A DNA stretch of 64,000 nucleotides, taken from Chiloscyllium plagiosum (Eukaryota). Below, in pieces: positions 1,284 to 64,000 of this stretch (positions are counted from its first letter, which is position 1; every line of letters begins with the position of its first letter). The notes below the pieces were generated by a model. It ran no database searches. It was not told where the DNA came from and saw only the letters and a program-made list of their open reading frames with translations. The position numbers and the translations under genes were made by a program. Location of the stretch: positions 45,124,894-45,188,893 of the forward strand of contig NC_057718.1 in assembly GCF_004010195.1 (NCBI RefSeq), in the 5' to 3' direction.

Positions 1284-1963
1284 GCAAAATTGTGATGGAT
1301 AAATAGTGACAAGGAAACAGGGAAAGCTTGCATACACTTCTGCAAATAATTCCAACTATTGTTTATCTCTGCATACTCAGCCAATGGACCTTGATGTGAC
1401 ATCTCTTCAAAAATATGGCCCCTCCAAAATTAAAGCGTTCATTCCACCCTCTGCCGAGGTGCAAAGATGGATTATGTACTCCTCTAAACTGATTTTAAAC
1501 TCACCAACCTCTGTCTCTGAACTGAGACTGCTACAATTGAAGCATGACAGGCAACGTACACATCTGGGTGCTTGAAAACAGAGCAATTAAATATTGGAAT
1601 AGTCAGAGGGCAATAAGAAAGAGAAAAAGGTTTCATAATGTTGACTGTCATATTAGAGGAGAGTAGTGCAAATATTTGCATATAAAAGGAATTTGTATTA
1701 TGCTTGAGATCATATTAAACATAACTAAAGACACAAATAACCGGCCATTCATCACATTACATGTACTAGGCCTTTACCAGTTCCTTTTGTCATGCAACAG
1801 TCATTACATTCTAAAGTTAATTCACCATATTATGTGAAACCTGGTTAATGTCAATCCGTGTATTCTGCAAGATTCCCAATTCTACACACAAAACTAATTA
1901 TTTAATTTTTGTCTTAGTGCTGGATGAATCTGTTATCAGTCCCGGTTAGGTACAGTATATTAC

Positions 1964-2137
1964 CTGATCTTGTAAACCTTTAAGCACAGCTTGATGCTCT
2001 TCCTGGATGCACTTTAATCTGTGTTTATGTTCATCTAGATCCTTCTTGAGGACATCAGTGATCTGAAGTTCATTTTGAAAATATCCAACATCCTTTTCTA
2101 ACTTGTTTTTTTCTGATTGAGAAATTTCTAGCTGCAA
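1964..2137 (-). CDS. CENPF: CENPF exon 15-like, copy 3, 174 nt
   Basis: aattttag|TTG and CAG|gtaata; ORF 1946..2137. Confidence 0.8.
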
Positions 2138-5100
2138 CTAAAATTAAAGGCAATTTTTAAAATGGAGACAAACACATCTAAAATATTACTTCTATTGCTA
2201 TTTTTTCATTCTTGTATTGAATCTTTTACTGACTTTTCAAGGAATCAATGAATAATTAGCCTCCATTTGCCTCCATTACAAAAAAAAAGAAATGATGTTC
2301 TGGTTAGATTCAAGACTGCAGTCACAACTAATTTCTTAATACCAGGAAGTGTAGGTGGCTAAGTTATCGTAAAAATAGTGTCTTTTTTAACTTTACAAAA
2401 CCCATTCCTACAATCAATACTGCTGTTTTTTCGTAAATATTTACTTTGGTCACAGTTTTATAGATAAATACCAAATTGCTTGCACTAAAAAAAATCCAAA
2501 CTTATACTTTATCACATTGGTGAAAACTTTGATTTTTGCTGGAATTTTATGATACTGAACCTTAAAACTTTCTGTCTGACTTCTAAACTCTTCAAATTGT
2601 GCAGAAATCAAGTTCTTCTCCACATCATATTCCTGCTGCATTTTCAGAATCTTTTCATTGGCTATAGTTAAGTCATCCTGCAGTTTACGATTATTTTCTG
2701 TCCGATCATTTACCTGAAAGATAGCCATTTTATTGATTACTAAACATTACAGTTGTTTGATCATTTTACCAAGTGCCAATATCTTGTCATGCATTTAATG
2801 TGACAATATCAAAAGTTACTGTGGAAAAAAAAGTTTCATTTATAATATAAACATAATTGCTTTAAGACACATTTGATAACAGTGGTCCAGATTTTGCAGC
2901 CACATTAGTGAAATACATTAGCTAGTTGGCTAGAGACTCTCTAGTTCCAGCAGTGCCAGGACACAGTAGTGACCACTGGAGTAAGTACTAGAAGTTCACT
3001 TAAAACTGAATACGTCTTTGACTTTAGGCATTACGAATTCATATTTCCATCACTAATACAAATGTAATGCCAAGTCAGGGACAGCTCCAGGTGATACGGA
3101 CATCAATTAAATAGCGTGAATAGTCAACCACATGGAAATTCTCATAGATAATAAAGCTGACAGTAAAATTCATTTGTAATGCCCTCTCAATGATGTTTAC
3201 AGAAAGCAAAAATACACATTGGAAGCTGAAATACTGGGAAATATTTTATGTTCCGTCACCAGCATATATGAAGTTTAAGAATGAATTTACATAAAATAAA
3301 GCAGCCGGTCAACGCATAACCTTGCTACACATGCTTGACCCGTCTCCCATATGACCATGGGTGGGAAAGTGACCACTTCAAAACCTCATTCCACCTCTGT
3401 GGCTGTGAAGTATGCACCTGGGGAACAATCAGCCAGTCTAACAGCGGGTAGGAAGGGGGAATACTACCTCTTCTGGTAAAACTCCATGGCTAGCAGGGAC
3501 ATCCCTGCACTCTCAAGATGATAAATTCTCATGTCATTAAGGTCACCACCAAGCAGTATTACACTACAGGGAAGCCAGATTTGAAGTCAGCGAGGTGCCA
3601 ACCAATTTTTCAAACGGCATGAAAGGAATATTTTCCCCTACAAATTCATCCATTATTAATACACTTATATTATTTATAGTACACAAATATAAAATTAATT
3701 TTCAATGGGCCAAGTGGTTGTTCAATAATAGTTACGAATATGTATGCTATTAAATATACAGTTGCATATTATTAGCAAATCACTACCTTTTTCAGACTTT
3801 AACAATAACATTACACAGGAAAAGGGAAGTCCTCATCCTTTCAGTGATTTGTAAAAAAAAATTGTACTGAGTGCTCCAACAACATACAGGAGCAGGCAAT
3901 CACTTGACAGCAGCTTTTGGATTTTCGTGTTGAATTGCATATATCTGAAGACCAACATTGAATAATGATGAACACCAACTCTTTCACCATTATTAAATTA
4001 CTTTATCTCGGAATATAGTCTGGTAGCCGTTCAAAGATCCTTATGTGTAACCAGGTATATAGATACATAGGGAGTAGGTTTGCTCGCTGAGCTGTAGGTT
4101 TGATATCCAGACGTTTCATTACCTGGCTAGGTAACATCATCAGTGGCGACATCCAAGTGAAGTGAAGCTGTTGTCTCCTGCTTTCTATTTATATGTTTGT
4201 CCTGGATGGGGTTCCTGAGGTTTGTGGTGATGTCATTTCCTGTTCGTTTTCTGAGGGGTTGATAGACGGTATCTCGATCTGTGTGTTTGTTTATGGCGTT
4301 GTGGTTGGAGCGCCAGGCCTCTAGGAATTCTCTGGCATGTCTTATATAGATACATTTACAGTATTTACACTGTCATGTTTACCTGATGTTTATGAAATCA
4401 GTGACAGCACTATTTTGCCACCTACATTTAAAAAAAACCAAAGCCAAAAACTGGAAATTTTGTATGAAGTATACAAAAATCAAGAAATACTAAATATTAA
4501 GCCAAGGAACAAGAAATGGCCTTCTGCACTTGACAAAACACCATCTATCATTGGTAGAAAAAAAATCAAGCCTTCTCTCAAAGTTTTTATTCATTATGAT
4601 ATTATGTTAATCTTCCCTTTAGGCTGCAAGGACCTCTTATCTCATTCTGGAACAAATAGGCTGTGTGTGACCAGTGTTCCCTTTGAGATGCATACATGTA
4701 TGGAGATACAGCAAAGAACTGCACAATGCAACAAATGTGCCCCAAAACAAAGAGAGACATTTGGGACAACATTCCTGGTAAAGTCAGCATTTATTACCCG
4801 TCCCCATATGCCTGTAAATGGGTGACTTGCTATACCACTTCAAAGGGCAGTTTAAAGCCAACCAAAGTGCAGTAGGTCTGAAGTCACATTCTGACCAGAT
4901 CACAAAAGGTGGCTTTCCTTTCCTAGTATAGGATATAACATATCTTTTTAGGGAAGTCCTGTAGTTATGTGCGCACTATTACTGGTACTACTTTTAAAAT
5001 TCCAGGTTCCTTTCTAATTGAAGCAAAACCCACGGTAGGGTTTGAATTCAATTCGCCCAATCATTAGTCTGGACCACTGGACTTTTGATATGGTAGCAAA

Positions 5101-8100
5101 ACCACTCTGCTAGCAATTCCAATGACTTCTTCCTTAAAATTCTATTGCCACACCTCATTCTCTTTTTCAATACAGGTTTAAAATCCAAGGTGGTACTCTC
5201 CCATTTTCAGACAAAGTACAAAAGCAGATAAGTTTCGAGGAAGGAAACCTGCAATCTATGATTAAGAGAATGTTCACCATAGGAAAACCCATTAGATCTT
5301 CAAGAAATTGGGCTGTAAATTACTTGCTGTTGGTCTTTTTATTGGATTTAAGACCCATGTTGAGACTCTCCCGGCCACCAGCCAAACAGAGCAACACCAG
5401 AATTTGGCAGCATCATATCAGAGGCTGTGGCTGCTGCCAGTATAACAGCCCCTACACCCCCAGTTTAGGAAAAGGTGACATTACAGGGAAGTAATGGCCT
5501 AGTGGTATTACAACTATATTATTAATCCAGAGATCAGATAAGGTTCTGGAGACCTGGTTTCAAATCCTGCATGGACTATGACATAATCTGAATTCAATAA
5601 GAAAATCTAAATGAGAAAATCAATAAGAGTCTAAACTGTTGTCAAATGCCAGAAAAACCCATCTGGTTCACTAATGTCCTTTAGGGCCGAAACTGCAGTT
5701 TTAACCTGGTCTGACCTCCAGGTGACTTCAGACCCACAGCAATGTGGTTGACTCTCAACTGCCCTCTGTGCAATTAGGGACGGGCAATAAATGCTGTCCT
5801 AGCTAGTGATGCCCACGTCCCATGATTGAATAAAATCTTCTTGGTAGAGGCTGCAGTTACAGAGAGGCAAGGGATTGCTCTCATCAGCGAGCTGACCATG
5901 AAAAATGACATTTGGCCAATTTGACCATAAGATTGTGGGACTCCCTCCCACTTCTACACCCATAAATTTCCCACCCACCCATTCCAGTTAACCAAATGGA
6001 TAGAGTAACTCTTATTCATTCCGCCCGGAGCTGCCCAGGTAGGTCAAAATCCTTACAGTTTTTAATTGACAATTCAGGTTTTACTTGGTAAGAGGGCAAG
6101 AATGTGGGTATTAGGCCTTCCGGTTTAGCACTGAATTTAAACAAAGCTGGTGAGTTTTGGTCCATCACTATACCAGTTAATCAAGTTCCCTTCCTGCCTT
6201 AGCACCCAGAAGATTCTGCTCCAAGACTCAGGAGGAGTATGGCATATTTTTCTCTGTTTTAAAATGTGATTGCAGACACTACCTGGATAGAAGGCTAAGG
6301 GTTTCACCATATTGGCCAACATCTCATCTTATCAATCTCCAATGTCTCTGTTAAGCTTAGTAATGGGAATGCTTTGTATTTTTGAAGTATCTTGGGGCAT
6401 TTTCTTTATTAATGATGCTCTATCAAAGCAAATGTTCGACATTGCGATTACAATATTGGTCAGAGCATTTGCTCATGCCATTAATGTTTGCTTTGCTTAA
6501 TTTATGAATATATAAATCATTTCTGCTACGAACTTGCAATTACTTCATGAAAGTTTCCAATTATGACAACTAAATAACATTGAAACCATTGTAAATCTTT
6601 CAAAGGCAATGCAAACTTGTTAGCTGGAACACTATTTGTACTAATATTCCACTGCAACATTTTCACTGGGAGTCAGTACGTCAATAATGACGAGGTAAAC
6701 GTAAAGGACTGAAGTTACTACAAGTAGGTCAAGTGTCATTTTCGTCAAGTGTCATGGAAGCTTTCTCTACACGAGGCCGAGCAGGTTTTCTCACATGATT
6801 ACCCCAAACACACTTCATTAAGTACATGCTGCATCCCTATGGCATTCTTCGCATTCATGCTACCCAAATCTCTCACTCACCATAGGTACAAGTAGTCGCT
6901 ATTTAAGATCTCTTGCACTGGTGCCATTTTGAACAGCAGCCATGTCCCCAGTCAAATGCTGACAGCCTGGATTTGCCCTTCAGCACACATGCTGTGGGAC
7001 TGCATTGACAATCCAACATTTCTCAAGGCACATACGTGGCACAGCTGACAGTTCAGTGCAAAGACAATTGTACATTCCTACACTTGTTGCTGTTTCAGCA
7101 TCAAGTCATACAGTTTACCTGGCCTTTAGTGACAACCCATTTTACAAAATTATCTCGGTCAGTGCTACTCTTTCCCAATGCACAATCCCCAATGCTGCAC
7201 TGCAATGAAAGATGCCAGTGCACTTCAAAGTGCAGCACTGCAGTGCAGGTGCAAATTGTAAGTGGATCGGACATATAGGTCTATCTGCTCTAATGCAAAT
7301 TCGCTGTAGCAATTTACAAATTAGGGACAATGATTCTAAAACGCAAATTTTTTAAATGTGTTGGTTATAATGGATTACATCGGCAACACTTTAAGCACTG
7401 TTTCTAAGGCACAATTATTCTATAACGTGCAGTTGTACAAGAACACATCTAGAAAAACTATCTGTATGCCATGAAGATATAGAGAAGCTGGTACTTGATA
7501 GATTCAACTTTCCATGACCACAGAGTACTCATGGCACATACTCTCAGATGTTGGCGATTGAGGTCTAGAGGAAAAAGCGTAACCATTTGTGACATTCATG
7601 ACTGTCTAGTGTCTATACGGCAAATGGGTGAGATGCAATGATGAATTATGTACTCCTCTAAATTGATTTTAAACTAACTAATTTCTGTCTCCGAAGTAAG
7701 GCTGCTACAATTGAAGCATGACAGGCAACCTACACATTTGGGTACTTGAAATTGAGTAAATAAAAACCAGAATAGTCAGAGAGCAAAAAAAAGAGAAAAG
7801 GATTTCATAATGTTGACTCTCATCTGGGCAGAGAGTAGTGCAATTATTTGCATATAAATGGAAGTTGTATTATGCTTACGATCATCTTAAACATAACTAA
7901 AAACAGAAACAACCTGCCATCCATCCCATTACATATAATTGGCCTTTACTTGTACAAAATGGTTCCTTTTTGTCATGTGACAGTCATCACATTCTAAAGT
8001 TAATTCACCATATTATGTGAAACAAGGCTATAGACAGTTCTTGTATTTTGCAAGATTTCTAATACTAAACACAAAACTAATTATAGGCATGCCCTGCTTT

Positions 8101-11100
8101 TTGAAAGTTCATTTTACACCACTTTGCTTTTATGAAAGACCTACATGGGTACCTGTTTTTGCTAACCAAAAGAAATCCAAAGAGCATTTTCATTTTTACA
8201 CAAAAAAACAAAATTTATCCCATATAAATGAATGCTTCTTCGCGTTATGCCATTTCAGCTTACGAAAGGTTTCATAGGAATGATCTACTTTTGGATAATG
8301 GGGGATACCTGTATTTAGTTTTTGTCACAGTGCTGGATGAATCAGTTATCAGTCCCGGTTAGGTATAGTATATTACCTGATCTTGTAAACCTTTAAGCAC
8401 AGCTTGATGCTCTTCCTGGATGCACTTTAATCTGTGTTTATGTTCATCTAGATCCTTCTTGAGGACATCAGTGATCTGAAGTTCATTTTGAAAATATCCA
8501 ACATCCTTTTCTAACTTGTTTTTTTCCGATTGAGAAATTTCTAGCTGCAACTAAAATTAAAGGCAATTTTAAAAATGGAGACAAACACATCTAAAATATT
8601 ACTTCTATTACTATTTTTTCATTCTTGTATTGAATCTTTAACTGACATTTCAAGGAATTAATAAATAATTAGCCTCCACTTGCCTCTATTACAAAAAAAA
8701 ATGCTGTTCTTGTTAGATTCAAGACTGCAGTCACAACTAATTTCTTAATACCAGTGTAGCTGGCTGAGTTATCGTAAAAATAATGTCTTTTTTTTACTTT
8801 ATAAAACCCATTCCTACAATCAATACTGCTGTTATTTTGTAAATATTTACTTTGATCACAGTTTTGTGGACAAATGCCAAATTGCTTGCACTAAAAAAAA
8901 TCCAAACTTCTTATACTTTACTGTTGATCACATTGGTGATAACTTTGATTTTTGCAAATGTCAGATTGTTGGAATTTTATGATACTGAACCTTAAAACTT
9001 TCTGTCTGACTTCTAAACTCTTCAAGTTGTGCAGAAATCAAATTCTTCTCCACATCATATTCCTGCTGCATTTTCAGAATCTTTTCATTGGCTCTAGTTA
9101 AGTCATCCAGCAGTTTACGATTATTCTCTGTCAGATCATTTACCTGAAAGACAGCAATTTGGTTGATTACTAAACATTACAGTTGTTTGATTATTTTACC
9201 AAATGCCAAAATCTTGTCATGCATTTGATGTGACAATATCAAAAGTTACCATGGAAAAAAAAAGTTTCATGTATTATTAACATAATTGCTTTAAGACACA
9301 TTTGATAACAGTGGTCCAGATTTTGCAGCCAGCAATGTAGTGAAATACATTAGCTAGTTGGCTAGAGACTCTCTAGTTCCAGCAGTGCCAGAAACAGTAG
9401 TGACCACTGCAGTAAGTACTAGAGTTCACTGAAAACTGAATACGTCTTTTGACCGAAGTCATTATGAAGTTCATATTTTCCATCATTAATACAAATGTAA
9501 TGCCAAGTCAGGGACAACTCCAGGTGATACAGATATCAATTACACAGCTCGAATAGTCACCACATTGGGGGCAAAGTATTGGGGGCAAAGTACTAGTTTG
9601 GATTGAAAATTGGTTGGCTAATAGGAAACAAAGGGTAGTGATAAACGGCTCCATTTCGGAATGGCAGGCAGTGACCAGTGGGGTACCGCAGGGATCCGTG
9701 CTGGGACCACAGCTTTTTACAATATATGTTAATGATATAGAAGATGGTATCAGCAATAACATTAGCAAATTTGCTGATGATACAAAGCTGGGTGGCAGGG
9801 TGAAAAGTGATGAGGATGTTAGGAGATTACAGGGTGACCTGGACAAGTTAGGTGAGTGGGCAGATGCATGGCAGATGCAGTTTGATGTGGATAATTGTAT
9901 GGTTATCCACTTTGGTAGCAAGAACAGGAAGGCAGACTACTACCTCAATGGAATCAATTTATGTAAAGGGGCAGTACAGAGAGATCTGGCAAGCATGCAG
10001 GTACAGCAGGTAGTGAAGAAGGCTAATAGCATGCTGGCCTTCATAACAAGAGGAATTGAGTATAGAAGCAAAGAGGTGCTTCTGCAGCTGTACAGGGCCC
10101 TGGTGAGACCACACTTGGAGTACTGTGTGCAGTTCTGGTCTCCAAATTTGAGGAAAGATTTTCTGGCTATTGAGGGAGTGCAGCGTAGGTTCACGAGGTC
10201 AATTCCTGGAATGGCAAGATTANNNNNNNNNNNNNNNNNNNNNNNNNNNNNNNNNNNNNNNNNNNNNNNNNNNNTCTTCACCCAGAGAGTGGTGGTTGTG
10301 TGGAATGCTCTGCCACAGGGGGCAGTGGAGGCCCACACTCTGGATTCATTTAAGAAGGAGTTGGATAGAGCTCTCAAAGATAGTGCAATCAAGGGTTATG
10401 GAGATAAGGCAGGAACAGGATACTGATTAGGAATGATCAGCCATGATTATATTGAATGGCGGTGCAGGCTCGAAGGGCTGAATGGCCTACTCCTGCACCT
10501 ATTGCCTATTGTCTATTGTCACATGGAAATTCTCATGGATGATAAGGCATACACTAAAATTCATTCAAAATGCTCTCTCTATGAAGGTTACAAAAAGCAA
10601 TAACACATACTTGAAGCTGAAATATTACGATAAGTTTTATGTCCCGTCACCAGCATGTGAAGTTTTTGAGTGAAGTTACATAAAATAAAGCAGCTGGTCA
10701 ACGTATAACCCTGCTACACACACTTGTCCAGTCTCCCATATGACCATGGGTGGGGTACTAACCACTCCAAAACCTTATTCCACCTCTATGGCTGTGAAGT
10801 ATGCACCTGGGGAACAATCAGCCAGTCTAACAACGGGTAGGAAGGGGGAATACTACCTCTTCTAGTAAAACTCCATGGCTAGCAGGGACATCCCTGCACC
10901 CTCAAGATGATAAAATCTCAAGTCATTAAGGTCACCACCACAGCAGTATTACTGCAGGGAAGCCAGATTTGAAGTCAGCAAGGTGCCAAGCAATTTTTCA
11001 AACGGCATAAGAGGAATATTTTCCCCTATGAATTCACAGTATTATTAATAGATTTATATTATTGATAGTACACAAATATAAAATTAATTTTCAATGGGCC

Positions 11101-35100: not shown

Positions 35101-35601
35101 AGTTGCACAGTGAGACATTGTATAAACCAGGAAATCCTGGGGGCTTATAAGAAATATTCATCAATCATGATGGGTGATTTTAATATGCACACAGACTGGA
35201 TGAATTAAATTGATAGAAGTAGCCACGAAGGAGTGTTAACTCAATGTACGAGAAATTGTTTCCTGGAGCAATGTGTTTTAGAACCAACCTGGAAGCACTT
35301 TTTTTTTGGATTTGGTAATATATAATGAGGTGGGATTAATTTCTCATTGTAAAGGATTCTCTAGTGAAGAAGTATCGTACCACACTATGATTTCAAATTC
35401 ACCTGAACAGCAAGTAACTGGAGCCCCACATTAGTATTTTTGAGTTAAACAAAGGCAATCACATAGGCATGAGGAAAGATTAGCTTCAAATAGATTGGGC
35501 AGAAAGACCATATGGTAAGATAGTTGATAAGCTGTGTCAGATGTTTAAGGAGATATTCAATTGCTCCCAAAATATACTCCAGAAAGGAAGATAGATTGTG
35601 T

Positions 35602-35633
<32 letters not shown>

Positions 35634-53600: not shown

Positions 53601-56600
53601 ACCTGTTGGAAATCCTTTTCCTTATCTTTTAACTTCTGTTCCATGTTGCGTCGTGTACTTTCAGCATTTTGTCTGTGACAACTCAATTCATCAGATACCT
53701 GCTTCAGCTTTTGTTCAACCATCAGACACTAACAAAATCAGAAACAAATATGGATGTGACTTTTATATTCTGGAATGGATTCTAGTACCAATACAAGCAA
53801 GAGCAAATAATTTAAGAAATGTTTAGATTATGGAATATAATGCATAAAATGTGAAATTGAGGTTTCTTATTTGATTTTATGCTACTTATACCTACAAAGA
53901 TAGACAAGTTGATTTCGCAAAAGTTCTCACAGTTAGAGCTTATATCTTGATCAAATCAGGACATGGAATATTTTGCCTTTTGATTAAATAAATCCTCTGT
54001 TCTTAGCTGAAGATGGTGGCTGGAATCTTTCTGAGTGGAGGTGGGCTAGCAAAAATAAATAACATGTAATGCAGGTGAAAAACACCATATCTCTCCCCCA
54101 CCCTGAATTTGTACTTGCAGAGTTACATTTTACTTTGCTCAAAAACTGCATGAATCCATGCAAGATTCTGTAAATCCATTTTTTAGATTAGAATCAGTCT
54201 GACCGTTGTGGCACAGACAGTCTCACACAGGGCAGCTCCCACCTTCAATACATTATCTGGGCAAACATGACATCAATTGTTAAAGTTCACTTGAGAATGT
54301 AACTTTTTTAAAAAAAGGTTTTGCGATTTTCATATGAAAGAACTGAAACCAACATGGTCATTCTAAAAGATGAGAGACTTATCAAACAATCCAGGTCTTT
54401 TTTCAATATATAACTTCAGTTACATCACACTGTAAACTTTTGCGATAAATTCTGTGTCTTACAGTCTTATTCTCCACAACCACCTGATGAAGGAGTAGCG
54501 CTCCGAAAGCCAGTGCTTCCAAATGAACCTGTTAGACTATAACCTAGTGTTGTGTGATTTTTAACTTTGAAGCAAATAAGCATGACAGATAAGAAGGAGA
54601 AAAGCTAACTTGGTAAGATGGGAATAAAATTGAAAAGATAAACTAAAAACAAATACAAAAAGATAAAACAATAAAGAGTAATGTTTAAAACTGATTAATA
54701 GTTCAGTAGCTACCTGAAATAACAACAGAAAATGCTGAAAGCACTCAGCCAGTCAGACAGCATCTGTGCAGAGAGAAACAAAGATTTTTGTTTAGATTAA
54801 TAACCTCTTAGAGTACTGATTCTCAGCTCCAGGACATCTCTGCAGGACCTCCTTAGGAGTGACCTAAACCCAAGCATCCACAGCTTCTTCATCAATGACC
54901 TTCCCTCCATCATAAGGTCAGAATGGAGATGTTCACTGATGATTACACAATGCTCAGCACCATTTGTGACTTCTCAGATACTGTTGCAGCCTATGTTCAA
55001 ATGTAACAAGATCTGGACAATATGCAGGCTTGGGCAGACAAGTAGCAAGTAACATTTGCGCCACACAAATGCCACGCTATGACCATTATCAATAGGAGAC
55101 AATCCAACCATCACCTTCTGACATTCAATGATGTAACCATCACTAAAATCTATACTAACAATAGCCTGGGAATTAATCGTTGACCATAAACTCAAATGGA
55201 TTCATCACATAAACACAATGGCTACAAGACCAGACCAGAGGCTAGGAATACTGCGGCAAGTAACTAATCTTCTGATTCCCAAAAGCCTGTTCTTCACCCA
55301 CAAGGCACAAGACAGGAATGTGATGTAATACTCCCCACTTGCCTGGGTGAGTGTAGCTCCAACAACGCTCAAGAAGCTTGACACCATCCAGGACAAAGCA
55401 GCCCACTTGATTGGCACTACATCCATAAGCATCCACTTCGTCCACCACTAATGCTCAGTAACATCAGTGTGTATCATCTGCAAGATGCAGTGCAGAAATT
55501 CATCAAAGATCCTCAGACAGCACTTTCCAAACCGATGACCACGTTCATCTAGACGGGCAAGGGCAGTATATACATAGTCGAGCGTGTGTTACTGGAAAAG
55601 CACAGCAGGTCAGGCAGCATCCAAGGAGCAGGAGAATCGACGTTTCGGGCAGGAGCCCTTCCTCTGGAATGGGCTTGGGGAGTACAGTGAGAGAGAGATT
55701 CAGTGAGATCTTTGTTGAGATAGGAGGAGAACTTCTTAAAGGTAGGCATCCTTGGAAGAGGCTTTACGGTCAGGTTAAAATCAACTAGGAGAAAGGGAAG
55801 TCTGCAGATGCTGGATATCAGAGTCGAGAGTGTGTTGCTAGAAAAGCTTAGCACATCAGGCAGCATCCAAGGAGCAGGAGAAACGACGTTTTGGGCTGGA
55901 GTCCTTCATCAGGAATGATTCTTGATGCCTTTCCAGCAACACCTTCTCGACTCTGATCTCCAGCATCTGCAGACCTCACTTTCTCCCAGCATATACATAA
56001 GAACACCACTACCTTCAGGTTCCCCTCCTAACTTGTAAACATATCGCTGTTCCTTCACTGCCACTGGGTATAAATCCTGGCATTCTCTCCCTAACAGCAT
56101 TGAGGTCTACCTACAGCGCACGGAATGCACCAGTTCAAGTAGTCAGCCCATCACTACCTTCTCAAAGGCAACTAGGGACAGGCAATAAATGCTGGCCAGC
56201 CAGTGATGCCCACATCCCATAAATCACTACGAAAAAAGACAAAGATTCCATACCTGAATTAATTATTTCTCTCTTCACAGATGCTGGCTGACATGCTAAA
56301 TATTTCCAGCATTTTCTAATATGATTTCAAATTTCAAACATCCACAGTACTTTACTAGTTTTTAAAATCAGGAGAAATATATTCCACTAAAAATCAACAA
56401 ACTAACCAGTAACAATATTCTATGGATGAATAAAGACAAAATGAAACTAAGAAAAACACGTTGGGAAATATGATGTATTTATACATTTAATACTTTTTGC
56501 AATAAAAACTTTGATTTTGCTGTTCTAACTCGAGAGTAATTGTCTCAAACAAATGAACTGCATACTGAAATGACATAGTTTTAAAGAATTCATCCGCTTG

Positions 56601-59600
56601 TTGCAGTCAAACATCAAGTGGTAAAAGGGCAAAACTAGTCTTCCCCTTCTCACCTGGTTATAACAGGATACACTCAGGAATCACTAAAGTAAGCAAATCA
56701 GCTTTAGTAGGTTCATGAGGTAAAGCAACCAAGCACTGGGAAAAAAATTCGCGAAAAAAACTGAAAAGTCAGGGAAGTTAAACTTGAATTCAGGAAAACT
56801 TGGAATGCTATATACTGTTCAGGTAATCTTATTATAAAAATGCAAAAGCAGTAGAATCATTGTGTAAAAAGAAAAGTTTAAAAAGTTAATACCAGAATTG
56901 GTAAGAGTGAGTACAGGAGTTGGAAGGTCATGTTGCGGCTGTACGGGACATTAGTTAGGCCAGTGTTGGAATATTGTGTGCAATTCTGGTCTCCTTCCTA
57001 TTGGAAAGATATTGTGAAACTTGAAAGGGTTCAGAAAAGATTTACAAGGATGTTGCCAGGGTTGGAGGATTTGAGCTATAGGGAGAGATTGAATAGGCTG
57101 GGGCTGTTTTCCCTGGAGCGTCAGAGGCTGAGGGGTGACCTTATAAAGATTTATAAAATGATGAAGGGCATGGATAGGATAAATAGACAAATTATTTTCC
57201 CTAAGGTGAGCCAACACATATCCAGAGGGCATAGGTTTAGGTTGAGAGGGGAAAGATAATAAAAGAGACCTAAGAGACCCCAACTCTTTCATACAGAGCG
57301 TGGTACGTATGTGGAATGAGCTGCCAGAGGAAGTGGTGGAGGCTAGTACAATTTCAACATTTAAAAAGCATCTGGATGGTTATATGAATAGGAAGGGTTT
57401 GGAGGGATATGGGCCAGGTGCTGCCAGTTGGGACTAGATTGGGTTGGGATTTCTGGATGGCATGGACGAGTTGGACCAAAGGGTCTGTTTCCATGTTGTA
57501 GGTCTTTATAAATCTATAAAAACAGATGAGGAGTGACCTGACAGAGATCATTAATATAATAAAAAGGTTTGATCGGGTAGAAAGAGAAAATGTTTCTAAT
57601 GCTGAAGAGGTAGAAAACTAGAGATCAGAAGTACAAGATAATCACTAATAAATACCACAGGGAATTAAGATCCTTCTTTACTCAGAATGGGAAGAATGTG
57701 GAATACAATACTACAAAGAGCATTTTAGGGAAATATAATTGATTCATTGGAGGGATAGCTAGATAATCTTGTAACAAGAATGAAACTTCCTGATATAGTT
57801 AGGAGGAGGAGGATGGGACAAGATTCATGCGAGCATGAATGCTGCCATGGGCCAGCTGGATCAAATGCTTGTTCAGTGTAGTACATTCAATGCAACATTC
57901 TCATAAGATAAACATAAAAATGGAAAATTATTCAATGTCAAACAAGTAGTGTACATGAAAGAATAATGTATAGTTATTGATTTTAAAAACTGAATAAAAT
58001 TAAACGAATTAGCTACATTATAATCATTCTAATTAAAATGACAAATTAGCTTAAAAGTGAATTAATGGATCTTACTGTACCTTTGTACTGGCTTGTTCAC
58101 ACTGTGCAGTTACCTTGGTCAATTCATCTCTGGACTTACTGAGTTTTTGTTCTTTCTCTGAAAGATCTACTTTAGCTTTATCAAACTGGAATTGGATTTC
58201 ATGAAGTTTATTCAGATGATTTTTGATTTCTTTCTCCTGAGTTTTAAGTCGAAATTCCAGATCAGAAACTTTAGTTTGCAGGTCTTCAAAACAAAAAGTG
58301 CACACCTTTCATCAACTCTACAAATTAAGTATAACTGCAGTCCAACAATTAATCATTTATTCTGCTTGAAACATTTCAACACTTAAAACTATTTTATTCA
58401 AGAGCAATATTACAGCTAGTACTAAAACACTTCAGAAAACACAGGGGCATCAGTAGGGTGTACAATAATAGAATGCAGTATATCTCAGGCTATTAGATCC
58501 AAAATTTATATTCAATTTATTATTCTAGCTTGTTGTTCTGATGTGTAAGTCATTATTTTGTAATTGTTCTACAAATGACAAATTTCTGTCAGTCAATACT
58601 TTTCACCTTTCAAACAAGTATAGGTAATTCAATAAAATGAACCATTGTTGAATTTACTAATTTGACGTCATGTTTTATATGGAATTAGAAATTTAAATAA
58701 AAATATTGACAACATTGCGATTTTTAAACTGCTGGCTCATCAGTTATGCTTTCATCCTTATTTTAATAAGTGGCCAACTGTTTGGTAAATGGAAGTATAA
58801 TGTGGGAAAATGTAAAATCGTCAATTTTGTATAAAAAAAGCATATTATCAAAATGATGACAGATTGCAGAGCTCTGAGATACAGATGACTCTGGGTGTCC
58901 TACTGCTTACACCACAGAAAGCTAAAGTGGAAGAAAGCAAATAATTAGGGAAGCTAATGGAATGTTATTTATCATGAGTGGAATTGAATAGAAAAGTAGG
59001 GAGGGTACGCTTCAGTTATGGAGCACTGATGAGACAACATCTGAGCATTGTGTGCAGTATTGATCACCTTATTTAAGATAGGATGTAAGTATGTTGGAAG
59101 CAGTTCAGTGGAACCTTACTCAACTAATACATATTTTTGTCTTGTGAGGAAAGGTTTGGACAGGCTAGGCTGTATCCTCTGGAGTTTATAAGAGGAAGAG
59201 ATGACTTAATTGAAGTAAGAGATCCTGAAGGATTTTGACAGGATAGATGTTGAGAGGATGTGACAGAATCTAGAACTATGGATTGTTGTTTAAAAATTAG
59301 GGGTTGTGCATGTAAAGAGATGAGGCAAAATATTTTCTCACAAAGGCCCATGTGTTTTTGGAACTTACTCTCTGAAAAGGTAATGAAACATTGACGTTTC
59401 AGTATTTTAAAGGTATAAGTAGATAAGCTTATTGCAAGTAAGGGGGCGGAATGGAATCAGATGTTGGTCAATATTCCGACTTATGGTTAAAATCAAATCA
59501 GCCATGATCTAATTAAATAATGGAGCAGGTTTGAGGGCTGAATGACTTACTCCTGCTCCTTATTCATAACATACATTGATAAGACCACATAGTTAAATTT

Positions 59601-61039
59601 AAAACTGGCCAATAATATGACAGCTTCGTGACTAATTTAAGGACTTAGCCAGTGAAATTTTCTCATTGTTATTGAAATCCGTTTTTCTCTGTAAAAATAT
59701 GGACCATCCACTCTTGCACTGATAGCAAAACACTAACAGTTCGAAATGACTGTCAAATTGTGGAACAGAAAATTTAAATCATCATCCAGAAGCTGAAAAT
59801 CATTAACTAAATCAAGTAAGGCACAATGTTAATATTAATTTCAAAAAGAATTAGGATTTCTGAACAAATACGTTGTGGCTGGCATAAAGATGAAGAAAGG
59901 TTGAAAAACATGTCAAGATGAATGACAGGAGTATATAGCAGTCCCAACACAAGATGATGTGGTCACTATGGATCATCATGAGGCCCTAGTGTATTTGAGT
60001 CAAGAGAAGACAATGCTACATAAATAACACAAACATAAAAATGTTGACTTTGCATTACTATGTAGTACACCAGGAAACGAAAAAAGTACAAACGGTAACG
60101 TACTATAACCTGTAAAGAAAACATAAGAATTTCTTATATGCTCAATTAGTTGATTTACTCTAATTCAGGGCAATTAATTTAATGATTTTTAAAAATGCCA
60201 TGGGATAATCAGAAAGATATAGATTTATAATCGGTGTAAAGATTAAATTGCAGAAAATATATATTATTTATCAAATAAAGGATTCTTAGGATTGGATGAA
60301 CTCCTCTTCAATCTTTCGGAGTCTTCATTTAAACCCTGTTATAAATGTCTTCTACAAAATGAATTTGAGTAATCCACATCTTAGTGGATGCAAAGATATA
60401 GTACAAATTGATACTAGTTTGGATGTAGTGAATACTTAACTGTGTGAAAGGTAAAAAGATTTACTCTTATGCAGTACAGAGATCAGTTCTAAAAGTTGAA
60501 TTCAGGGTGCATTACTTAGAATAAAGAATGTTAACTATAAGTAAGAAATTGAAGAACACTGCATCAAAGATTAGAATGATCAAAGTGAGATGGACAAATT
60601 GAGAAGTATATTTAGTGAAATGGGTATAATATTTGTTTGCACACTACTTGTGATCCTCATGCTTTATAGAATTATAAAATTGTTTATGAAAGCAATTTCT
60701 CTCAAAATGGTTAGTTATGAGTAATTACTTTTGGATCACTACAATACCTTGATTTTGTAATTTCAGTTGGTCCTCCTGCTTAGAGGTGTCCACACTGTTA
60801 TTAATCCAGCTTGTTGAGTGTGTAGTCTTTTGCAGTGATTTGGGACAATGCGTCAAGGGAGTTTCTTCTTGGTCCCATTGAAAATTCATGGCAATACCCT
60901 TCTTCATTGGGGTTTCTAGTGAATGAGAGGTTTGGTGACTTGGAGTTTGTTCTTGTTGCCATGGAAATACAAAAGAGGATCGCTGATGTGCCATATTCCG
61001 ATGGCCAGTGGTGCTTTGAGGCTGCGTCTGGTTAGACAA
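1964..61039 (-). CDS. CENPF: Centromere protein F, partial multi-exon gene (15 coding exons in window, 8079 nt, one continuous frame; both ends outside window)
   Basis: The spliced translation is a long coiled coil with recognisable CENP-F motifs: [82 protein letters not shown]...[15 protein letters not shown]. All exons have AG/GT boundaries with compatible phases. Confidence 0.95.
2561..2713 (-). CDS. CENPF: CENPF exon 14-like, copy 3, 153 nt, [51 protein letters not shown]
   Basis: tctttcag|GTA and AAG|gttcag; ORF 2450..2728. Confidence 0.8.
4069..4342 (-). mobile_element. 5'-truncated Penelope-like element (3' end and pLTR), same family as 48141..51750
   Basis: Near-identical to about 48183..48462; 13-bp TSD tatatagatacat at 4056..4068 and 4343..4355; absent from unit B. 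Confidence 0.9.
4107..4146 (-). ncRNA. Minimal type-I hammerhead ribozyme motif
   Basis: CCA-CUGAUGA-U-GUUACCU-AGCC-AGGUAAU-GAAA-CG-UC/UGG. Confidence 0.75.
5486..5835 (+). mobile_element. tRNA-derived SINE with LINE-derived tail (DeuSINE/SacSINE-like, family tentative)
   Basis: A-box-like tggcctagtgg and B-box-like gtttcaaatcc; tail gggcaataaatgctg...cccatgattgaataaaa shared with LINE tails near 41400 and 56200. Confidence 0.65.
6750..7466. mobile_element. Degraded Tc1/mariner (Tigger-like) DNA transposon remnant; paralogous copy at about 12700..13335
   Basis: Ends in ...actatctg-TA; repeated gcaaattcgctgtag and tataacg motifs; boundaries approximate. Confidence 0.4.
8084..8311. mobile_element. 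Tc1/mariner-type MITE, 228 bp, TA target duplication
   Basis: TA-taggcatgccc...gggggatacctg-TA imperfect TIRs; the empty site in unit A (about 1899) has a single TA. Confidence 0.75.
8377..8550 (-). CDS. CENPF: CENPF exon 15-like, copy 2, 174 nt
   Basis: aattttag|TTG and CAG|gtaata; ORF 8359..8550. Confidence 0.8.
8991..9143 (-). CDS. CENPF: CENPF exon 14-like, copy 2, 153 nt, [51 protein letters not shown]
   Basis: tctttcag|GTA and AAG|gttcag; open frame; paralogue of 23098..23250. Confidence 0.8.
9566..10519 (+). mobile_element. 5'-truncated CR1-clade LINE (RT C-terminus and 3' tail), contains an N-gap
   Basis: [33 protein letters not shown]; (ctattgt)n tail; cacat duplicated at both ends; absent from unit A. 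Confidence 0.92.
10223..10274. other. Assembly gap (52 N)
   Basis: Run of N. Confidence 1.
11516..11758 (+). mobile_element. V-SINE (HE1-like) fragment
   Basis: tgtgtggagtttgcacattctc...tgggttt...ctccgg...gcaggttaggtgaattggcc core followed by a CR1-like tail; present in unit B only. Confidence 0.75.
13795..14693 (+). mobile_element. Rex1/Babar-type non-LTR retrotransposon, degraded 3' fragment
   Basis: Remnants of [24 protein letters not shown], and HP...[28 protein letters not shown]-rich tail aataataaatcaaatcaa. Confidence 0.8.
14745..15260 (-). mobile_element. Degraded CR1 LINE 3' fragment
   Basis: Reverse-complement similarity to other CR1 3' regions in the window. Confidence 0.6.
15800..15937 (-). 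CDS. CENPF: CENPF exon 16-like, 138 nt, [46 protein letters not shown]
   Basis: Read manually. atttgttag|CAT and AAG|gtaaaa; resembles the CENP-F segment YEVEIQTYREKL...KEELN. Confidence 0.85.
17575..17708 (+). mobile_element. CR1 3' tail fragment
   Basis: atgggccaag...ggtggggctagtttag...tatgactctatga, matching the tails near 26700 and 45400. Confidence 0.6.
18769..18795. other. Assembly gap (27 N)
   Basis: Run of N. Confidence 1.
18887..18926 (+). ncRNA. Minimal type-I hammerhead ribozyme motif
   Basis: GCA-CUGAUGA-U-GUCGCCU-AGCC-AGGGGAC-GAAA-CG-UU/UGC. Confidence 0.75.
19768..19941 (-). CDS. CENPF: CENPF exon 15 equivalent, copy 1, 174 nt, [15 protein letters not shown]...[11 protein letters not shown]
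   Basis: atctctag|TTG and CAG|gtaact; phase 0-0. Confidence 0.9.
21338..21600. repeat. Direct repeat copy 1 (about 265 bp; partner at 22749..23019)
   Basis: Collinear from ctttgtgtg..gagactttgagtgagcactgtag to atatatttggaactttta. Confidence 0.85.
21880..22132 (+). mobile_element. CR1 3' tail fragment
   Basis: aatttcttcactcagag...aatggcctactcct motif shared with 10275..10520. Confidence 0.7.
22749..23019. repeat. Direct repeat copy 2
   Basis: See 21338..21600. Confidence 0.85.
23098..23250 (-). CDS. CENPF: CENPF exon 14 equivalent, copy 1, 153 nt, [51 protein letters not shown]
   Basis: tcttgtag|GTT and AAG|gttcag; phase 0-0. Confidence 0.9.
26190..26810 (+). mobile_element. CR1 LINE 3' fragment
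   Basis: Degraded LVRLHLEY and [22 protein letters not shown]1 tail. Confidence 0.85.
27010..29316 (-). CDS. CENPF: CENPF large exon (exon 13 equivalent), 2307 nt, contains the CENP-F leucine-zipper-type segment
   Basis: Lies within ORF 27004..29316. tttttcag|TTG and CAG|gtataa; motif [25 protein letters not shown]. Confidence 0.95.
30222..33865 (-). CDS. CENPF: CENPF giant exon (exon 12 equivalent), 3644 nt coiled coil
   Basis: Lies within ORF 30198..33914. ctttttag|GT AAG AAC (phase 1) and CATAAG|gtgaat. Confidence 0.95.
34720..37230 (+). mobile_element. Degraded CR1 LINE ORF2 (APE endonuclease plus RT) and tail
   Basis: [10 protein letters not shown]...[34 protein letters not shown] remnants with many stops and frameshifts. 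Confidence 0.85.
35597..35632. repeat. (TG)n microsatellite followed by a poly-G run
   Basis: Direct reading. Confidence 0.9.
37480..38370 (+). mobile_element. Scattered, highly degraded CR1 fragments
   Basis: Partial similarity to CR1 ORF2 3' regions. Confidence 0.45.
38371..39610 (-). mobile_element. CR1 LINE 3' portion (RT)
   Basis: [17 protein letters not shown]...[14 protein letters not shown]; tail at about 38371. Confidence 0.9.
40440..41415 (+). mobile_element. SINE head plus internally deleted LINE (CR1/L2 group) sharing the 5486..5835 tail
   Basis: Similar to 5486..5770 in its 5' part and to 55370..56230 in its 3' part. Confidence 0.65.
42531..42666 (-). CDS. CENPF: CENPF exon (exon 11 equivalent), 136 nt, [45 protein letters not shown]
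   Basis: Read manually. aattacag|AGT and AAAA|gtaaac; phase 0 to 1. Confidence 0.92.
42935..45150 (+). mobile_element. Degraded CR1 LINE ORF2 and tail
   Basis: WRVANVTP-like, [16 protein letters not shown] and SKFADDTKL remnants; tail aatggcctactcctgcacc. Confidence 0.9.
45170..45485 (+). mobile_element. CR1 3' tail fragment
   Basis: aggtgagaggagaaagattta...tatgactct. Confidence 0.75.
46205..46327 (-). CDS. CENPF: CENPF exon (exon 10 equivalent), 123 nt, [41 protein letters not shown]
   Basis: Read manually. aattacag|GTA and GAA|gtaaga. Confidence 0.92.
46705..46833 (-). CDS. CENPF: CENPF exon (exon 9 equivalent), 129 nt, [43 protein letters not shown]
   Basis: Read manually. tttcaaag|GAG and AAA|gtatgt. 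Confidence 0.93.
46930..48030 (+). mobile_element. Degraded LINE (CR1/L2 group) 3' region, interrupted by short tRNA-like SINE fragments at about 47015..47217
   Basis: Collinear with 54820..55560 and with the reverse complement of 62490..63480. Confidence 0.7.
48222..48261 (-). ncRNA. Minimal hammerhead motif in the inverted pLTR (one stem-II mismatch)
   Basis: CCA-CUGAUGA-U-GUUACCU-AGCC-AGAUAAU-GAAA-CG-UC/UGG. Confidence 0.7.
49727..50004. mobile_element. Nested fold-back mini-element: perfect 69-bp inverted repeat plus tandemly repeated ~80-bp tail
   Basis: Arms 49729..49797 and 49817..49885; 14-bp TSD tcatcc(t/a)gaacaga at 49713..49726 and 50005..50018. Confidence 0.9.
49779..49813 (-). 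ncRNA. Minimal type-I hammerhead ribozyme motif (intact core)
   Basis: CAC-CUGAUGA-A-GGAGC-GUC-GCUCC-GAAA-GC-UA/GUG; palindromic AGCU at stem III. Confidence 0.8.
51709..51748 (+). ncRNA. Minimal hammerhead motif in the Penelope 3' pLTR
   Basis: CCA-CUGAUGA-C-GUUACCU-AGCC-AGGUAAU-GAAA-CG-UC/UGG. Confidence 0.75.
52160..52279 (-). mobile_element. Short Penelope-tail-like repeat with a decayed hammerhead (52247..52279)
   Basis: GUC-CUGAAGA-A-GGGC-UAC-ACCC-AAAA-UG-UU/GAC; changes fit CpG decay of CGAAACG. Confidence 0.6.
53603..53728 (-). CDS. CENPF: CENPF exon (exon 8 equivalent), 126 nt, [42 protein letters not shown]
   Basis: Not in the ORF track; read manually. ttttgttag|TGT and CAG|gtgata. 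Confidence 0.93.
54110..54568 (+). mobile_element. Longer copy of the 49727 family (pLTR-like) with a mutated hammerhead at 54481..54515
   Basis: CAC-CUGAUGA-A-GGAGU-AGC-GCUCC-GAAA-GC-CA-GUG, followed by the same tail as 49817..49890; 5' boundary approximate. Confidence 0.7.
54815..56236 (+). mobile_element. LINE (CR1/L2 group) 3' region with nested hammerhead-family inserts at about 55577..55987
   Basis: RT remnants ([13 protein letters not shown]); tail ctcaaaggcaactagggacaggcaataaatgctgg. Confidence 0.8.
55577..55987 (-). mobile_element. Two tandem copies and a short inverted arm of the 63522 family, with decayed hammerhead cores
   Basis: ctggaaaagcacagcaggtcaggcagcatccaaggagcaggagaatcgacgtttcggg occurs twice (second copy diverged); 55787..55845 is inverted at 55930..55987. 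Confidence 0.7.
56905..57510 (+). mobile_element. CR1 LINE 3' fragment
   Basis: [19 protein letters not shown]...[15 protein letters not shown]...[11 protein letters not shown]. Confidence 0.92.
58081..58283 (-). CDS. CENPF: CENPF exon (exon 7 equivalent), 203 nt, [14 protein letters not shown]...QCEQASTK
   Basis: ttttgaag|AC and AAG|gtacag; phase 1 to 0. Confidence 0.93.
58770..59562 (+). mobile_element. Degraded CR1 LINE 3' fragment
   Basis: Collinear with other CR1 3' ends; tail aatgacttactcctgctcct. Confidence 0.75.
60748..61039 (-). CDS. CENPF: CENPF exon (human exon 6 equivalent), 292 nt, LSNQTQPQ...[12 protein letters not shown]...QLKLQNQ
   Basis: Acceptor tttttcag|TTG and donor CAAG|gtattg; phase 0 to 1; N-terminal CENP-F motif. 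Confidence 0.92.
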
Positions 61040-62494
61040 CTGAAAAATGGGAAAAAAAATTCAATTCAGAAAGGAGTTCTCTAACAAGTGCTCTACTTTT
61101 AAATATGTTTGTTAATCTGAAACTGAGAACACTCCTATTGCTGTATGGATTTTAATTTATAGTCAGCATAGATATAAACCAGATTACAAAAGCAGGAAAG
61201 TGTATTCATTCATTGTACAATCCAGGTCATCAGGAAAGTGTCTTGCTACATTAGAGATGAGAACTATCAAGAACTACCACAATATTACTCAGCATTTATA
61301 TGAAATTTCTAAAATGGACTATATTGCAAAGTGCTTCAAAAAGGTATAACAAAAAAAATTGCCACCAAACCAAAGAAAATTAAGGGGGAGGAGCTAAAGC
61401 ATTGTTAAAGAGCTGAATTTTAACAAGGATCCTAAAGGAGCATAGGGATGTGGAAAGGCTGAGAGCTCAGAGACAGAATTGCAGAGCATGGAGCCTAAGT
61501 ATCTGAACACAGAGCTGCCAGTGGACGGAAAGGACAGGAGGTTTTCAAACTAGGTTTAGTAGAATGAACTGTAGAATCAATTGTATGATTGGCGTATCGT
61601 ACAGAAATACAATAGTTTAGCAATGAGGGCATTGAAAGATGAGAACAAACAAATATCCAATATAAATGTCCTATCTTGGTATTTTTTGCCGGATCCTGCA
61701 GGGTACTCACCTTACTAATGTCTTTGTTGTGTCAGTCATTTGAACCATTTGACTTGGTCACTAGACCAATAATCATTACCACATTCTGCCAACACCTTGC
61801 CCCTGAGTGAAGCCTCCCCTCCAAACAAGGCTTTTGAGAAACTGCTTGCCAAATCACTACAGTGTTGGTGTGGCTTTTAACCACCAACTTATACTTTAGT
61901 CTCACTTCTCCTACTCCATTGGCTCTATCCCCTGTTGAACAAGTCACCATTCCTCCCTTTAAAACCATGGTTTCTTCCCTCACTTTAAGCCCCAACAAAT
62001 GTATCTCACTAAATTATACTCCAAATTCCACCTTCCCATCCTCAAAAACTCATTACTGCTCCTCTGAATTCACTGCCTCCACCATCCCCACAGTCCATAC
62101 AAAAGGTCTCTTTCATACAAGTCCTTCTACCCATTCTTACTGTCAGCCTCTTAAAATTACCCAGTGTCCATTTCCATCATCTCAAATTAATGTAGCATCT
62201 CCAAATGCTTCATTGTCACTTTTGGCAGCCACAACCCTAACTCCATTACCGGGCCAACCTAAAATTACTGTCAGTGTTTCCAGTCAGCTGTGGATGCATG
62301 CAACTGCACACTCAGAGGGTCCTATGTAAGATGCTGTGGATGCAGTGTATACAAAATTGAAAAGTACCATGCATTAATACTAAGAAACCAAGTACAATGA
62401 AAACATTTAGAGGGAACATTGCTTTCAGCTGTATTTTTCATCTCAACTTTCTAGCTTTTGGCTCTCCAATTTCCCCAACACGCAATTGTTTTTT

Positions 62495-64000
62495 CTATTC
62501 ATTCATGGGACATGGGCATTTCTGGTTAGCCAGCATCCCTAATTGCCCTTGAGAAGGTGGTGCTGACCTGCCTTCTTGAACCACTGCAGTCTACATGCTG
62601 TAGGTTGAGCTACAATGTCCTTACGGAGGGAATTCCGGGATTTTTACCTAGCAACAGTGAAAAATGGAGATATATTTCCAAGTCAGAATGTTCAGAGGCT
62701 TGGAGGGGAACTTCCAGGTGGTGGTATTCTCATTTATATGCAACGCTTGTCCTACTAAATGAAATCGCTTGTGGGATTGGAAAGTGCTGTCTAAGAAACA
62801 TTGGTAAAGTTCTACAGTCCATCTTGTAGATAGCACACACCGCTGTTAGCGAGCATCAGAAATTTATGCTTGTGGATGTGATGCCAATCATCAGGCTGTT
62901 TTGACCAGCATGGTGTCAAGCTATTTCAATGTTGTTGGAGCTGCACTCATCCAGGAAAGTGGGGAGTATAACTTCACATTTCTGGTAAATGATATACAGG
63001 CTTTGGAGAGACAGGATGCGAGTTATTCACTGCAGTATTACTCACTGTCCCGACCTGCTTTTGCAGCTGCTGTATTTATGTGGCAAGTCTAGTCGAGTTT
63101 CTAGTCAACAGTAACAACAAAGTTGTTGATATTGGGGAGTCAGTGACGGTAACGCAACTGCATGTCAAGATGCAGTGATTGGATTATCTTTTATTGGAGA
63201 TGGTCATTAGCATTCATGTCACACAAAAGCACTGGTCAGCCCAAGCCTGGATATTGTTCAGATATTGTTGCTTTTGAACATGGACTGCTACAGTATCTGA
63301 AGAGTAACAAATGGTGCTGAAATTTATGCAATCAGCAATCATCGCATTTTCTGACTTTATAATGGTGGGAAGTCGCTGATGAAGCAGCTGAAAATGGTTT
63401 AGACCTAGGACACTACCCCAAGGAATTCCTGCAAAGATGTCGTGGACCTGGGATGACTGACTTCCAACAATCACAATCATCTTCCCATGTGCCAGGTACG
63501 ACTCAAACTAGTACAGAGTTTCAGCAGATCAGAGCTGAAAATGTGTTGCTGGAAAAGCGCAGCAGGTCAGGCAGCATCCAGGGAACAGGAGAATCGACGT
63601 TTCGGGCATAAGCCCTTCTTCATGCCCGAAACGTCGATTCTCCTGTTCCCTGGATGCTGCCTGACCTGCTGCGCTTTTCCAGCAACACATTTTCAGCCCT
63701 AGTACAGAGTTTGCCTTCTGATAACCATCGATTCCAGTTTTGCTCGGTCTACTTGGATGCCATTCTGGGTCAAATGTGGGCTTGACATCAAGGATGGTTA
63801 ATCTCATCTCACTTCTGGAATTCAGCTCTTTTAGACCATGTTTGAACCAAGGCTGTAATGAGGTCAGAAGCTGAGCGTCAAAAAACAGGTTATTGCTGAG
63901 TAGGTGTTGCTTGATGGCACTGCTGATGACATCATTTTACGACGATTGAGAGTACACTAACCAGACAATGGTTGGCCAGGTTGATTATGCCCGGCTTTTT
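62495..64000 (-). mobile_element. LINE (CR1/L2 group) 3' region running off the right end
   Basis: GIPWGSVLG remnant; the tail at about 62495..62560 is the reverse complement of the shared LINE/SINE tail. Confidence 0.8.
63522..63698. mobile_element. Fold-back mini-element: perfect 76-bp inverted repeat with a truncated hammerhead at its centre
   Basis: Arms 63534..63609 and 63622..63697, 12-nt spacer; 14-bp TSD ctagtacagagttt at 63508..63521 and 63699..63712. Confidence 0.9.

Follow-up and report, generated by a model that had tools for sequence, protein, structure and literature searches.

Hammerhead motifs in CENPF introns of the bamboo shark: probable remnants of four Penelope-like element families

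Introduction

A stretch of 64,000 nucleotides from the bamboo shark Chiloscyllium plagiosum (contig NC_057718.1, positions 45,124,894 to 45,188,893; hereafter the window) lies wholly inside the gene CENPF and contains ten cited sites that resemble minimal hammerhead ribozymes. All ten are intronic, as had been stated by a reading made from the letters of the DNA (the sequence-only reading). What are these motifs, by what route did they reach the introns, and do they act there? We consider it probable, at roughly 0.8, that they are the hammerheads of the pseudo-long terminal repeats (pLTRs) of four protein-coding families of Penelope-like elements (PLEs), present as truncated insertions made by a route that combines two cDNAs per insertion with run-off of the reverse transcriptase (RT) at the 5' end of the copied RNA. 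Positions written as +n or −n are counted from the C of CUGANGA.

Results and discussion

Complete and broken hammerhead motifs

A descriptor for type-I minimal hammerheads finds exactly five complete motifs in the window, with cores starting at 4143 (minus strand), 18890 (plus), 48258 (minus), 49810 (minus) and 51712 (plus); they are the sites given earlier as 4107, 18887, 48222, 49779 and 51709. Since 100 control sequences, built by resampling the local dinucleotide frequencies, hold 0.09 such motifs on average and never more than 1, the motifs are real, and 842 kb of unselected DNA holds 27 complete motifs compared with 0–3 in eight controls. Each of the five shows the features of PLE minimal hammerheads, namely CUGANGA, one extra base behind it, stem II, GAA-A, an ACGU or AGCU palindrome, UH and stem I. 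The sequence-only reading had taken them for minimal type-I hammerheads of PLEs, and we agree; its stem I pairs and cut triplets stand, as do the extra nucleotide and the palindrome in the complete motifs. A search of the window with Rfam at gathering thresholds gave no match.

The remaining five of the ten sites are broken, among them all four copies of family 4. It had been said that every copy has CUGANGA, which is not the case: the copy at 63590–63623 reads AUGAAGA and lacks C3, a hairpin junction having cut off its arm, and the copy at 55640 has CAGAGGA in the core. AAAA stands in place of GAAA in the copies at 55885 and 52247, and AGCC replaces the AGCU palindrome at 54481. Although no family-4 copy in the window is intact, this family has 75,764 exact intact cores genome-wide; family 3 has 12,186 and families 1 and 2 together 14,874, with none in reversed controls, so that the genome holds at least 102,824, or about one per 35 kb. 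The unselected sample contains at least two further hammerhead families; stem I is UCA/UGA in one, which is Poseidon-like, and AGUU/AACU in another.

Pairing in stem I was not required by the tally. Among 328 copies, a set that includes pattern-selected loci, the first position pairs in 313 and the second in 315, pair 2 being A:U in 169, U:A in 88 and C:G in 53. Pairs 1–3 each occur as three or four Watson–Crick types, compensatory between families, and pair 3 is U:U in 70 of the 328. The proposal of covarying stems in otherwise unrelated flanks thus stands for the covariation, as seen in stem I, and falls for the flanks of families 1 and 2, which are 71–74% alike over about 72 nt. An invariant core with covarying stems points to selection on the hammerhead in active lineages. 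A comparison of core and body divergence in family 4 (14/790 versus 66/1975) was biased by the alignment filter and is not used.

Coding elements behind the four families

Open reading frames (ORFs) lie upstream of all four families, and every ORF seen is decayed. Going upstream from the family-3 hammerhead, one meets a CA-rich untranslated region (UTR) and then a GIY-YIG and RT ORF; in family 4, at locus L282, an open stretch of 590 residues that comprises RT, linker and GIY-YIG lies about 160 nt ahead of the hammerhead. Both families have a CX4CxxC linker between RT and endonuclease, and their RTs are only about 33–40% identical. RVT_1 is matched above cutoff at one locus (L235), and the GIY-YIG matches fall under the Pfam cutoff (E 0.004–0.005) with their motifs visible. 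Two family-3 loci, L241 and L244, are partial tandems; the former, a full element, has a unit of 3438 nt from hammerhead to hammerhead, and its ATG stands where the tail ends. A supposed fixed 5' boundary of family 3 at 54104 was rejected as merely the edge of the CA-rich tract. Judged, like all four families, by motifs rather than by a tree against named references, families 3 and 4 are the 3' ends of Neptune-type PLEs with RT and GIY-YIG ORFs.

In families 1 and 2 the ATG of the ORF stands at the base of stem II, and the extra base is therefore the U of this ATG. They have no Zn-finger linker, and their ORF starts within the hammerhead as it does in PAc, the Poseidon element of the green anole. 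By these sequence features, families 1 and 2 are ends of Poseidon-type PLEs.

How the insertions are built

The 3' ends of copies are bimodal, near +85–95 and +120–127, in agreement with the two internal RT starts of PMC11167929, and 55 of 62 head-to-head pairs (45/51 and 10/11, p = 2e-10) consist of one tailed and one short arm. The hairpin junctions of these pairs, taken from unselected DNA, hardly ever recur (48 distinct junctions in 51 pairs, 11 in 11). Target-site duplications (TSDs) of at least 8 nt accompany 16 of 36 well-preserved single family-4 stubs and 0 of 36 controls; when the upstream flanks of these 36 stubs were compared, none of the 630 pairs was alike. Partial tandem or inverted pLTRs, a 30–40-nt tail and TSDs are all seen here. 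A fixed hairpin unit for family 3 proved to be a query artefact, the junction found in the window having only 81 genome-wide matches and unselected junctions being unique.

We infer that each nicked strand, with its own start site, gives rise to one cDNA and that the two cDNAs are joined in a single event. The GIY-YIG domain would nick both target strands, and the RT would start two cDNAs at two internal sites 35–40 nt apart, downstream of the hammerhead; each site would normally be used by one cDNA, and the two would then be joined head to head via short homologies. The anole element has been seen in vitro to nick and extend both strands and to start internally (PMC11167929), and by analogy the shark families would do the same.

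The sequence-only reading had suggested that families 3 and 4 may be non-autonomous and retrozyme-like, which would make them copies of short masters without coding sequence. Most of their copies are short and non-coding, many with a TSD of their own, as in the 16 stubs mentioned above, and copies with the ORF start are far outnumbered by short ones (818 first-look candidates). However, the subfamilies examined include long copies as well as stubs, the upstream flanks of stubs are unrelated, and the 81 occurrences of the window's family-3 junction stand against 12,186 intact cores. Close same-strand pairs number two among 242 family-4 arms and one among 51 family-3 arms. The near absence of tandem arrays and the rebuilding of hairpin junctions at each insertion argue against retrozymes and, together with the continuation of both families into ORFs, indicate that the short copies are insertion products of coding elements. 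We therefore regard a retrozyme-like origin as highly unlikely.

A pile-up of 5' ends just upstream of the hammerhead

Family-4 arms were tallied in 1.56 Mb not selected for this family, arms with N at the junction and duplicates being dropped. Of 242 arms, 124 start between −10 and +9, with the mode at −4/−3 (33 arms); 18 start between −150 and −21, and 24 run beyond the references. Among intact-core copies, sampled from the first listed places on one contig, a start within 20 nt of the core was found in 20 of 30 for family 4, in 54 of 92 for family 3 (drawn from the first 100 listed places) and in 1 of 25 for families 1 and 2, after 5 of 30 rows with identical upstream sequence or N had been dropped. 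The family-3 starts are narrowly placed, 37 of the 54 lying at −9 to −6, and 32 copies have TATAAA at −36 to −40, about 30 nt before this peak. Family 4 has an initiator-like match, with A at −4.

These positions suggest that the stubs are run-off copies of the 5' end of the RNA, which would then lie at the stub position. In the Neptune-type families the RT would often start at sites near this end and run off just upstream of the hammerhead, giving stubs of 95–130 nt. Because the stubs keep the whole motif, the copied RNA would have been uncut. In Drosophila virilis the promoter and transcription start lie inside the pLTR (PMC2377424).

The same pile-up could be a roadblock, the RT being halted by the folded hammerhead or by a protein that binds it, and would then not mark the 5' end of the RNA. 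This would fit a pile-up at the base of the hammerhead in two families with RTs only about 33–40% identical, and starts that spread into the core (+1 to +10). However, the RT stops after passing the motif and not before it, the offset differs between family 4 (−4/−3) and family 3 (−9 to −6), and families 1 and 2, with a longer stem II, gave the 1 of 25 reported above. The family-specific offset and the absence of a Poseidon-type pile-up argue against the fold as a block, and we think a roadblock unlikely.

Polyadenylated RNA of family 3

About 2% of one poly(A)-primed single-cell run was aligned to the family-3 junction. Reads end in poly(A) at +60 (385 reads) and +57 (293 reads), 12–15 nt after ATTAAA or AATAAA; this signal is present in 75 of 92 family-3 copies, and a GU-rich tract follows the poly(A) site. 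The family-3 ORF itself has almost no reads. Both RT starts are downstream of the poly(A) site, so that the polyadenylated transcript holds them only near its 5' end.

This layout would suit a retrovirus-like strong-stop and jump as the mode of replication of Neptune-type PLEs, an idea that we put forward tentatively and consider doubtful. The family-3 RNA would be capped at about −8 and polyadenylated at +57/+60, with a terminal repeat of about 68 nt and a hammerhead at both ends, and the RT start sites (+87, +121) would occur only near the RNA's 5' end. The RT would copy 95–130 nt to the cap and then jump, by way of the repeat, to the RNA's 3' end. The stubs, in their tens of thousands, would represent strong-stop cDNAs that failed to jump and were integrated as such, and the jump would explain both the use of 5' sequence as the 3' tail and the formation of partial tandems.

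Several points weigh against the run-off reading of the stubs. TATAAA is also present in families 1 and 2, at about −50, yet stubs near −20 are almost absent there. In family 3, copies that include the ORF start have their 5' ends spread broadly (−16 to +136), with no sharp peak. A G precedes all eight family-3 starts at −8, but the partner arm explains four of them. The position of the transcription start is deduced from the stubs rather than mapped. The poly(A) reads come from one sample and may stem from few host transcripts or loci, and a poly(A) end of family 4 was absent among the six of 127 loose read ends shown. The G before the −8 starts was also considered as derived from a cap and set aside as only suggestive: besides the four of eight templated by the partner arm, three of the eight had prompted the idea, and G is not enriched in family 4 (6/17).

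Cleavage and its possible traces

Published activity of such hammerheads is low and needs a dimer (PMC4209133; review PMC6765202) or the protein of the element (PMC11167929). By analogy, the shark hammerheads likely need a dimer or the protein of the element in order to cut. Copies that stand singly in introns lack stem III and likely do not cut, and the insertions are likely inert. In families 1 and 2 (51709–51748 and 18887–18926) the lowest-energy predicted fold, from folding of monomers and pairs that does not model the dimer, joins the core with the palindrome in an inactive alternative; cutting would in addition remove their ORF start codon.

If cut RNA had been copied, the 5' ends of copies should fall at the predicted cut. 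The direct arm of the long family-1 insertion does start, at 48914, exactly where the upstream hammerhead is predicted to cut (the whole insertion, inverted and direct arm together, being bounded by a 13–14-bp TSD), and one more copy brings the count to 2 of 59; in family 4, five of 242 arms start at +28. Without the copy that prompted the idea, however, family 1 is left with 1 of 58, and the family-4 excess vanishes when +28 to +30 are pooled (5 against about 3–4 expected), all five being hairpin junctions. RNA reads, from fragmented RNA libraries, cross the cut site with no pile of ends, and uncut RNA was the dominant substrate in PMC11167929. The pile-up at the cut site is not significant in family 1 (2/59), family 3 or family 4 (5/242), and a footprint of the cut in the 5' ends of copies is quite unlikely.

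Three complete motifs (4143, 48258 and 49810) lie on the sense strand of CENPF, as would be expected of hammerheads co-opted to regulate the CENPF pre-mRNA. However, motif density in CENPF is the same as in random DNA (27 in 842 kb), two of the three sense-strand motifs lie in long inverted repeats that would pair them, both cores of the only close same-strand pair are broken, and the 4143 copy is not in the duplicated sister intron. Co-option thus has a probability close to negligible. The close pair, at 55587–55918, consists of two family-4 stubs 247 nt apart on the sense strand and is the window's only potential cis-dimer layout.

Host gene and other features of the window

Mapping of a CENPF-like protein places the gene on the minus strand, from 86240 to −12845 in window coordinates, and all ten hammerhead sites in its introns (Table 1). 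The exon at 27007–29340 matches Pfam PF10473 and agrees, at 100% identity, with a C. plagiosum protein that is labelled CENPF-like.

CENPF contains an internal tandem duplication (window 1456–5037 versus 7630–12451, offsets 6.2–7.4 kb, 81–97% alike), which doubles an exon pair (2552–2716/1961–2143 and 8985–9155/8374–8556) corresponding to roughly 109-residue repeats in the shark protein. The duplicated introns, 4010–4355 and 11399–11761, hold different insertions at nearly the same spot, a family-1 end in one and another repeat in the other. Fragments of LINE-type RT repeats at 9557–10426 (an RVT_1 match), 26355–26769 and 56882–57492 are unrelated to the hammerheads. Older remnants of family-4-related bodies without a hammerhead lie at 45785–45846, 54715–54781 and 56263–56329, and the family-3 hairpin at 49719–50010 ends in an 82-nt duplication, an extra tandem copy of its body and tail.

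Table 1. Host gene and hammerhead-bearing insertions in the window
Feature	Position	Strand	Description
CENPF host gene	1..64000	-	exons e.g. 61042-60743, 58287-58081, 53728-53594, 46833-46702, 33866-30219
CENPF further exons	29319-27007, 19941-19753, 9146-8985	-	further examples
Family 1, 5'-truncated PLE end	4069..4342	-	hammerhead complete (4107-4146); copy stops at the short RT start site; TSD of 13 bp
Family 2, head-to-head insertion	18235..18963	+	inverted arm 18235-18323 carries the tail; direct arm has an ORF remnant; hammerhead complete (18887-18926); TSD of 13 bp
Family 1, inverted arm	48148..48913	-	endonuclease end, pLTR, hammerhead 48222-48261 (one stem II mismatch), tail
Family 1, decayed near-full-length element	48914..51752	+	RT about 50231-50900; GIY-YIG about 50990-51611; hammerhead 51709-51748
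Family 3, hairpin stub nested in family-1 ORF	49719..50010	.	hammerhead complete (49779-49813) in minus arm (-8..+91); tail on plus arm (+13..+118)
Family 4, old stub	52168..52278	-	core broken (AAAA)
Family 3, 3' UTR and pLTR	54104..54569	+	hammerhead 54481-54515, palindrome broken (AGCC); upstream TATAAA and AATAAA-type site both mutated
Family 4, stub	55587..55671	-	begins at -5; core broken (CAGAGGA)
Family 4, hairpin stub	55785..55989	.	minus arm -6..+125; core broken (AAAA, stem II mismatch)
Family 4, hairpin stub	63526..63700	.	arm starts +1 and +14, hence C3 missing; 14-bp TSD

Comparison with known systems

Minimal hammerheads are known from the pLTRs of metazoan PLEs, including fish Xena, Poseidon and Neptune (Cervera and De la Pena 2014, PMC4209133). 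The shark motifs resemble those described there in being of type I, in lacking stem III, in the palindrome at positions 15/16, in the extra base after A9, in G10.1–C11.1 and in occurring as dispersed single copies and as pairs on opposite strands. They differ in number, with at least 102,824 exact cores here as against about 4,000 in coelacanth and 9,000 in Xenopus by the descriptor of that paper; in axolotl, up to 120,000 canonical retrozyme motifs have been reported (PMC7229834). The hammerhead class is already known, and the shark families, which may already be present in Repbase or Dfam, are additions to the known PLE minimal hammerheads. Literature searches for shark cases brought up a review in which sharks occur only in the name of the motif, and a 2026 preprint (Li et al., bioRxiv 10.64898/2026.07.22.740005) with one cartilaginous fish, which may bear on how new the shark case is; the available parts of PMC4209133 name no shark. 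The analysis adds a shark to the range of these motifs, and the density of cores matters for repeat annotation.

Families 1 and 2 resemble the green anole PAc (Frangieh et al. 2024, PMC11167929), in which the ORF starts at the base of stem II and the cut falls about 27 nt after the ATG. As in PAc, two RT start sites define a 30–40-nt tail and both strands are used; unlike PAc, for which no strand difference in start sites was seen in vitro, 55 of 62 shark pairs use one of each. Pile-ups of 5' junctions are not described in that paper. Neither a sharp 5' stop before the hammerhead nor a working poly(A) site behind it was found stated in the literature searched. The role of the ribozyme and the formation of PLE tails and tandems are open questions (PMC11167929, PMC8557442), and with so many copies this genome preserves an extensive record of where RTs start and stop. 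The template model for PLEs can be tested directly if the capped end of the RNA lies at the stubs and polyadenylation takes place ahead of the RT starts. Host transcripts, too, may be terminated by the family-3 poly(A) signals, which are dispersed in their thousands.

Families 3 and 4 share with the Neptune clade (Craig et al. 2021, PMC8557442) the RT, a CX4CxxC linker (the clade mark being CX2-5CxxC) and, at the C-terminus, a GIY-YIG domain. Their insertions are like those with inverted pLTR and tail (Arkhipova et al. 2013, PMC3846280), with partial tandems, an inverted truncated copy, a tail at one end, noted there qualitatively, and TSDs of 8–17 bp. With animal non-LTR retrozymes (PMC7229834; Li et al. 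2026) the short shark copies share their non-coding nature, the hammerhead and the relation to PLE pLTRs. Retrozymes, however, are head-to-tail tandem units with a hammerhead in each, whereas the shark copies are single or head to head and appear as the cut-down ends of coding elements.

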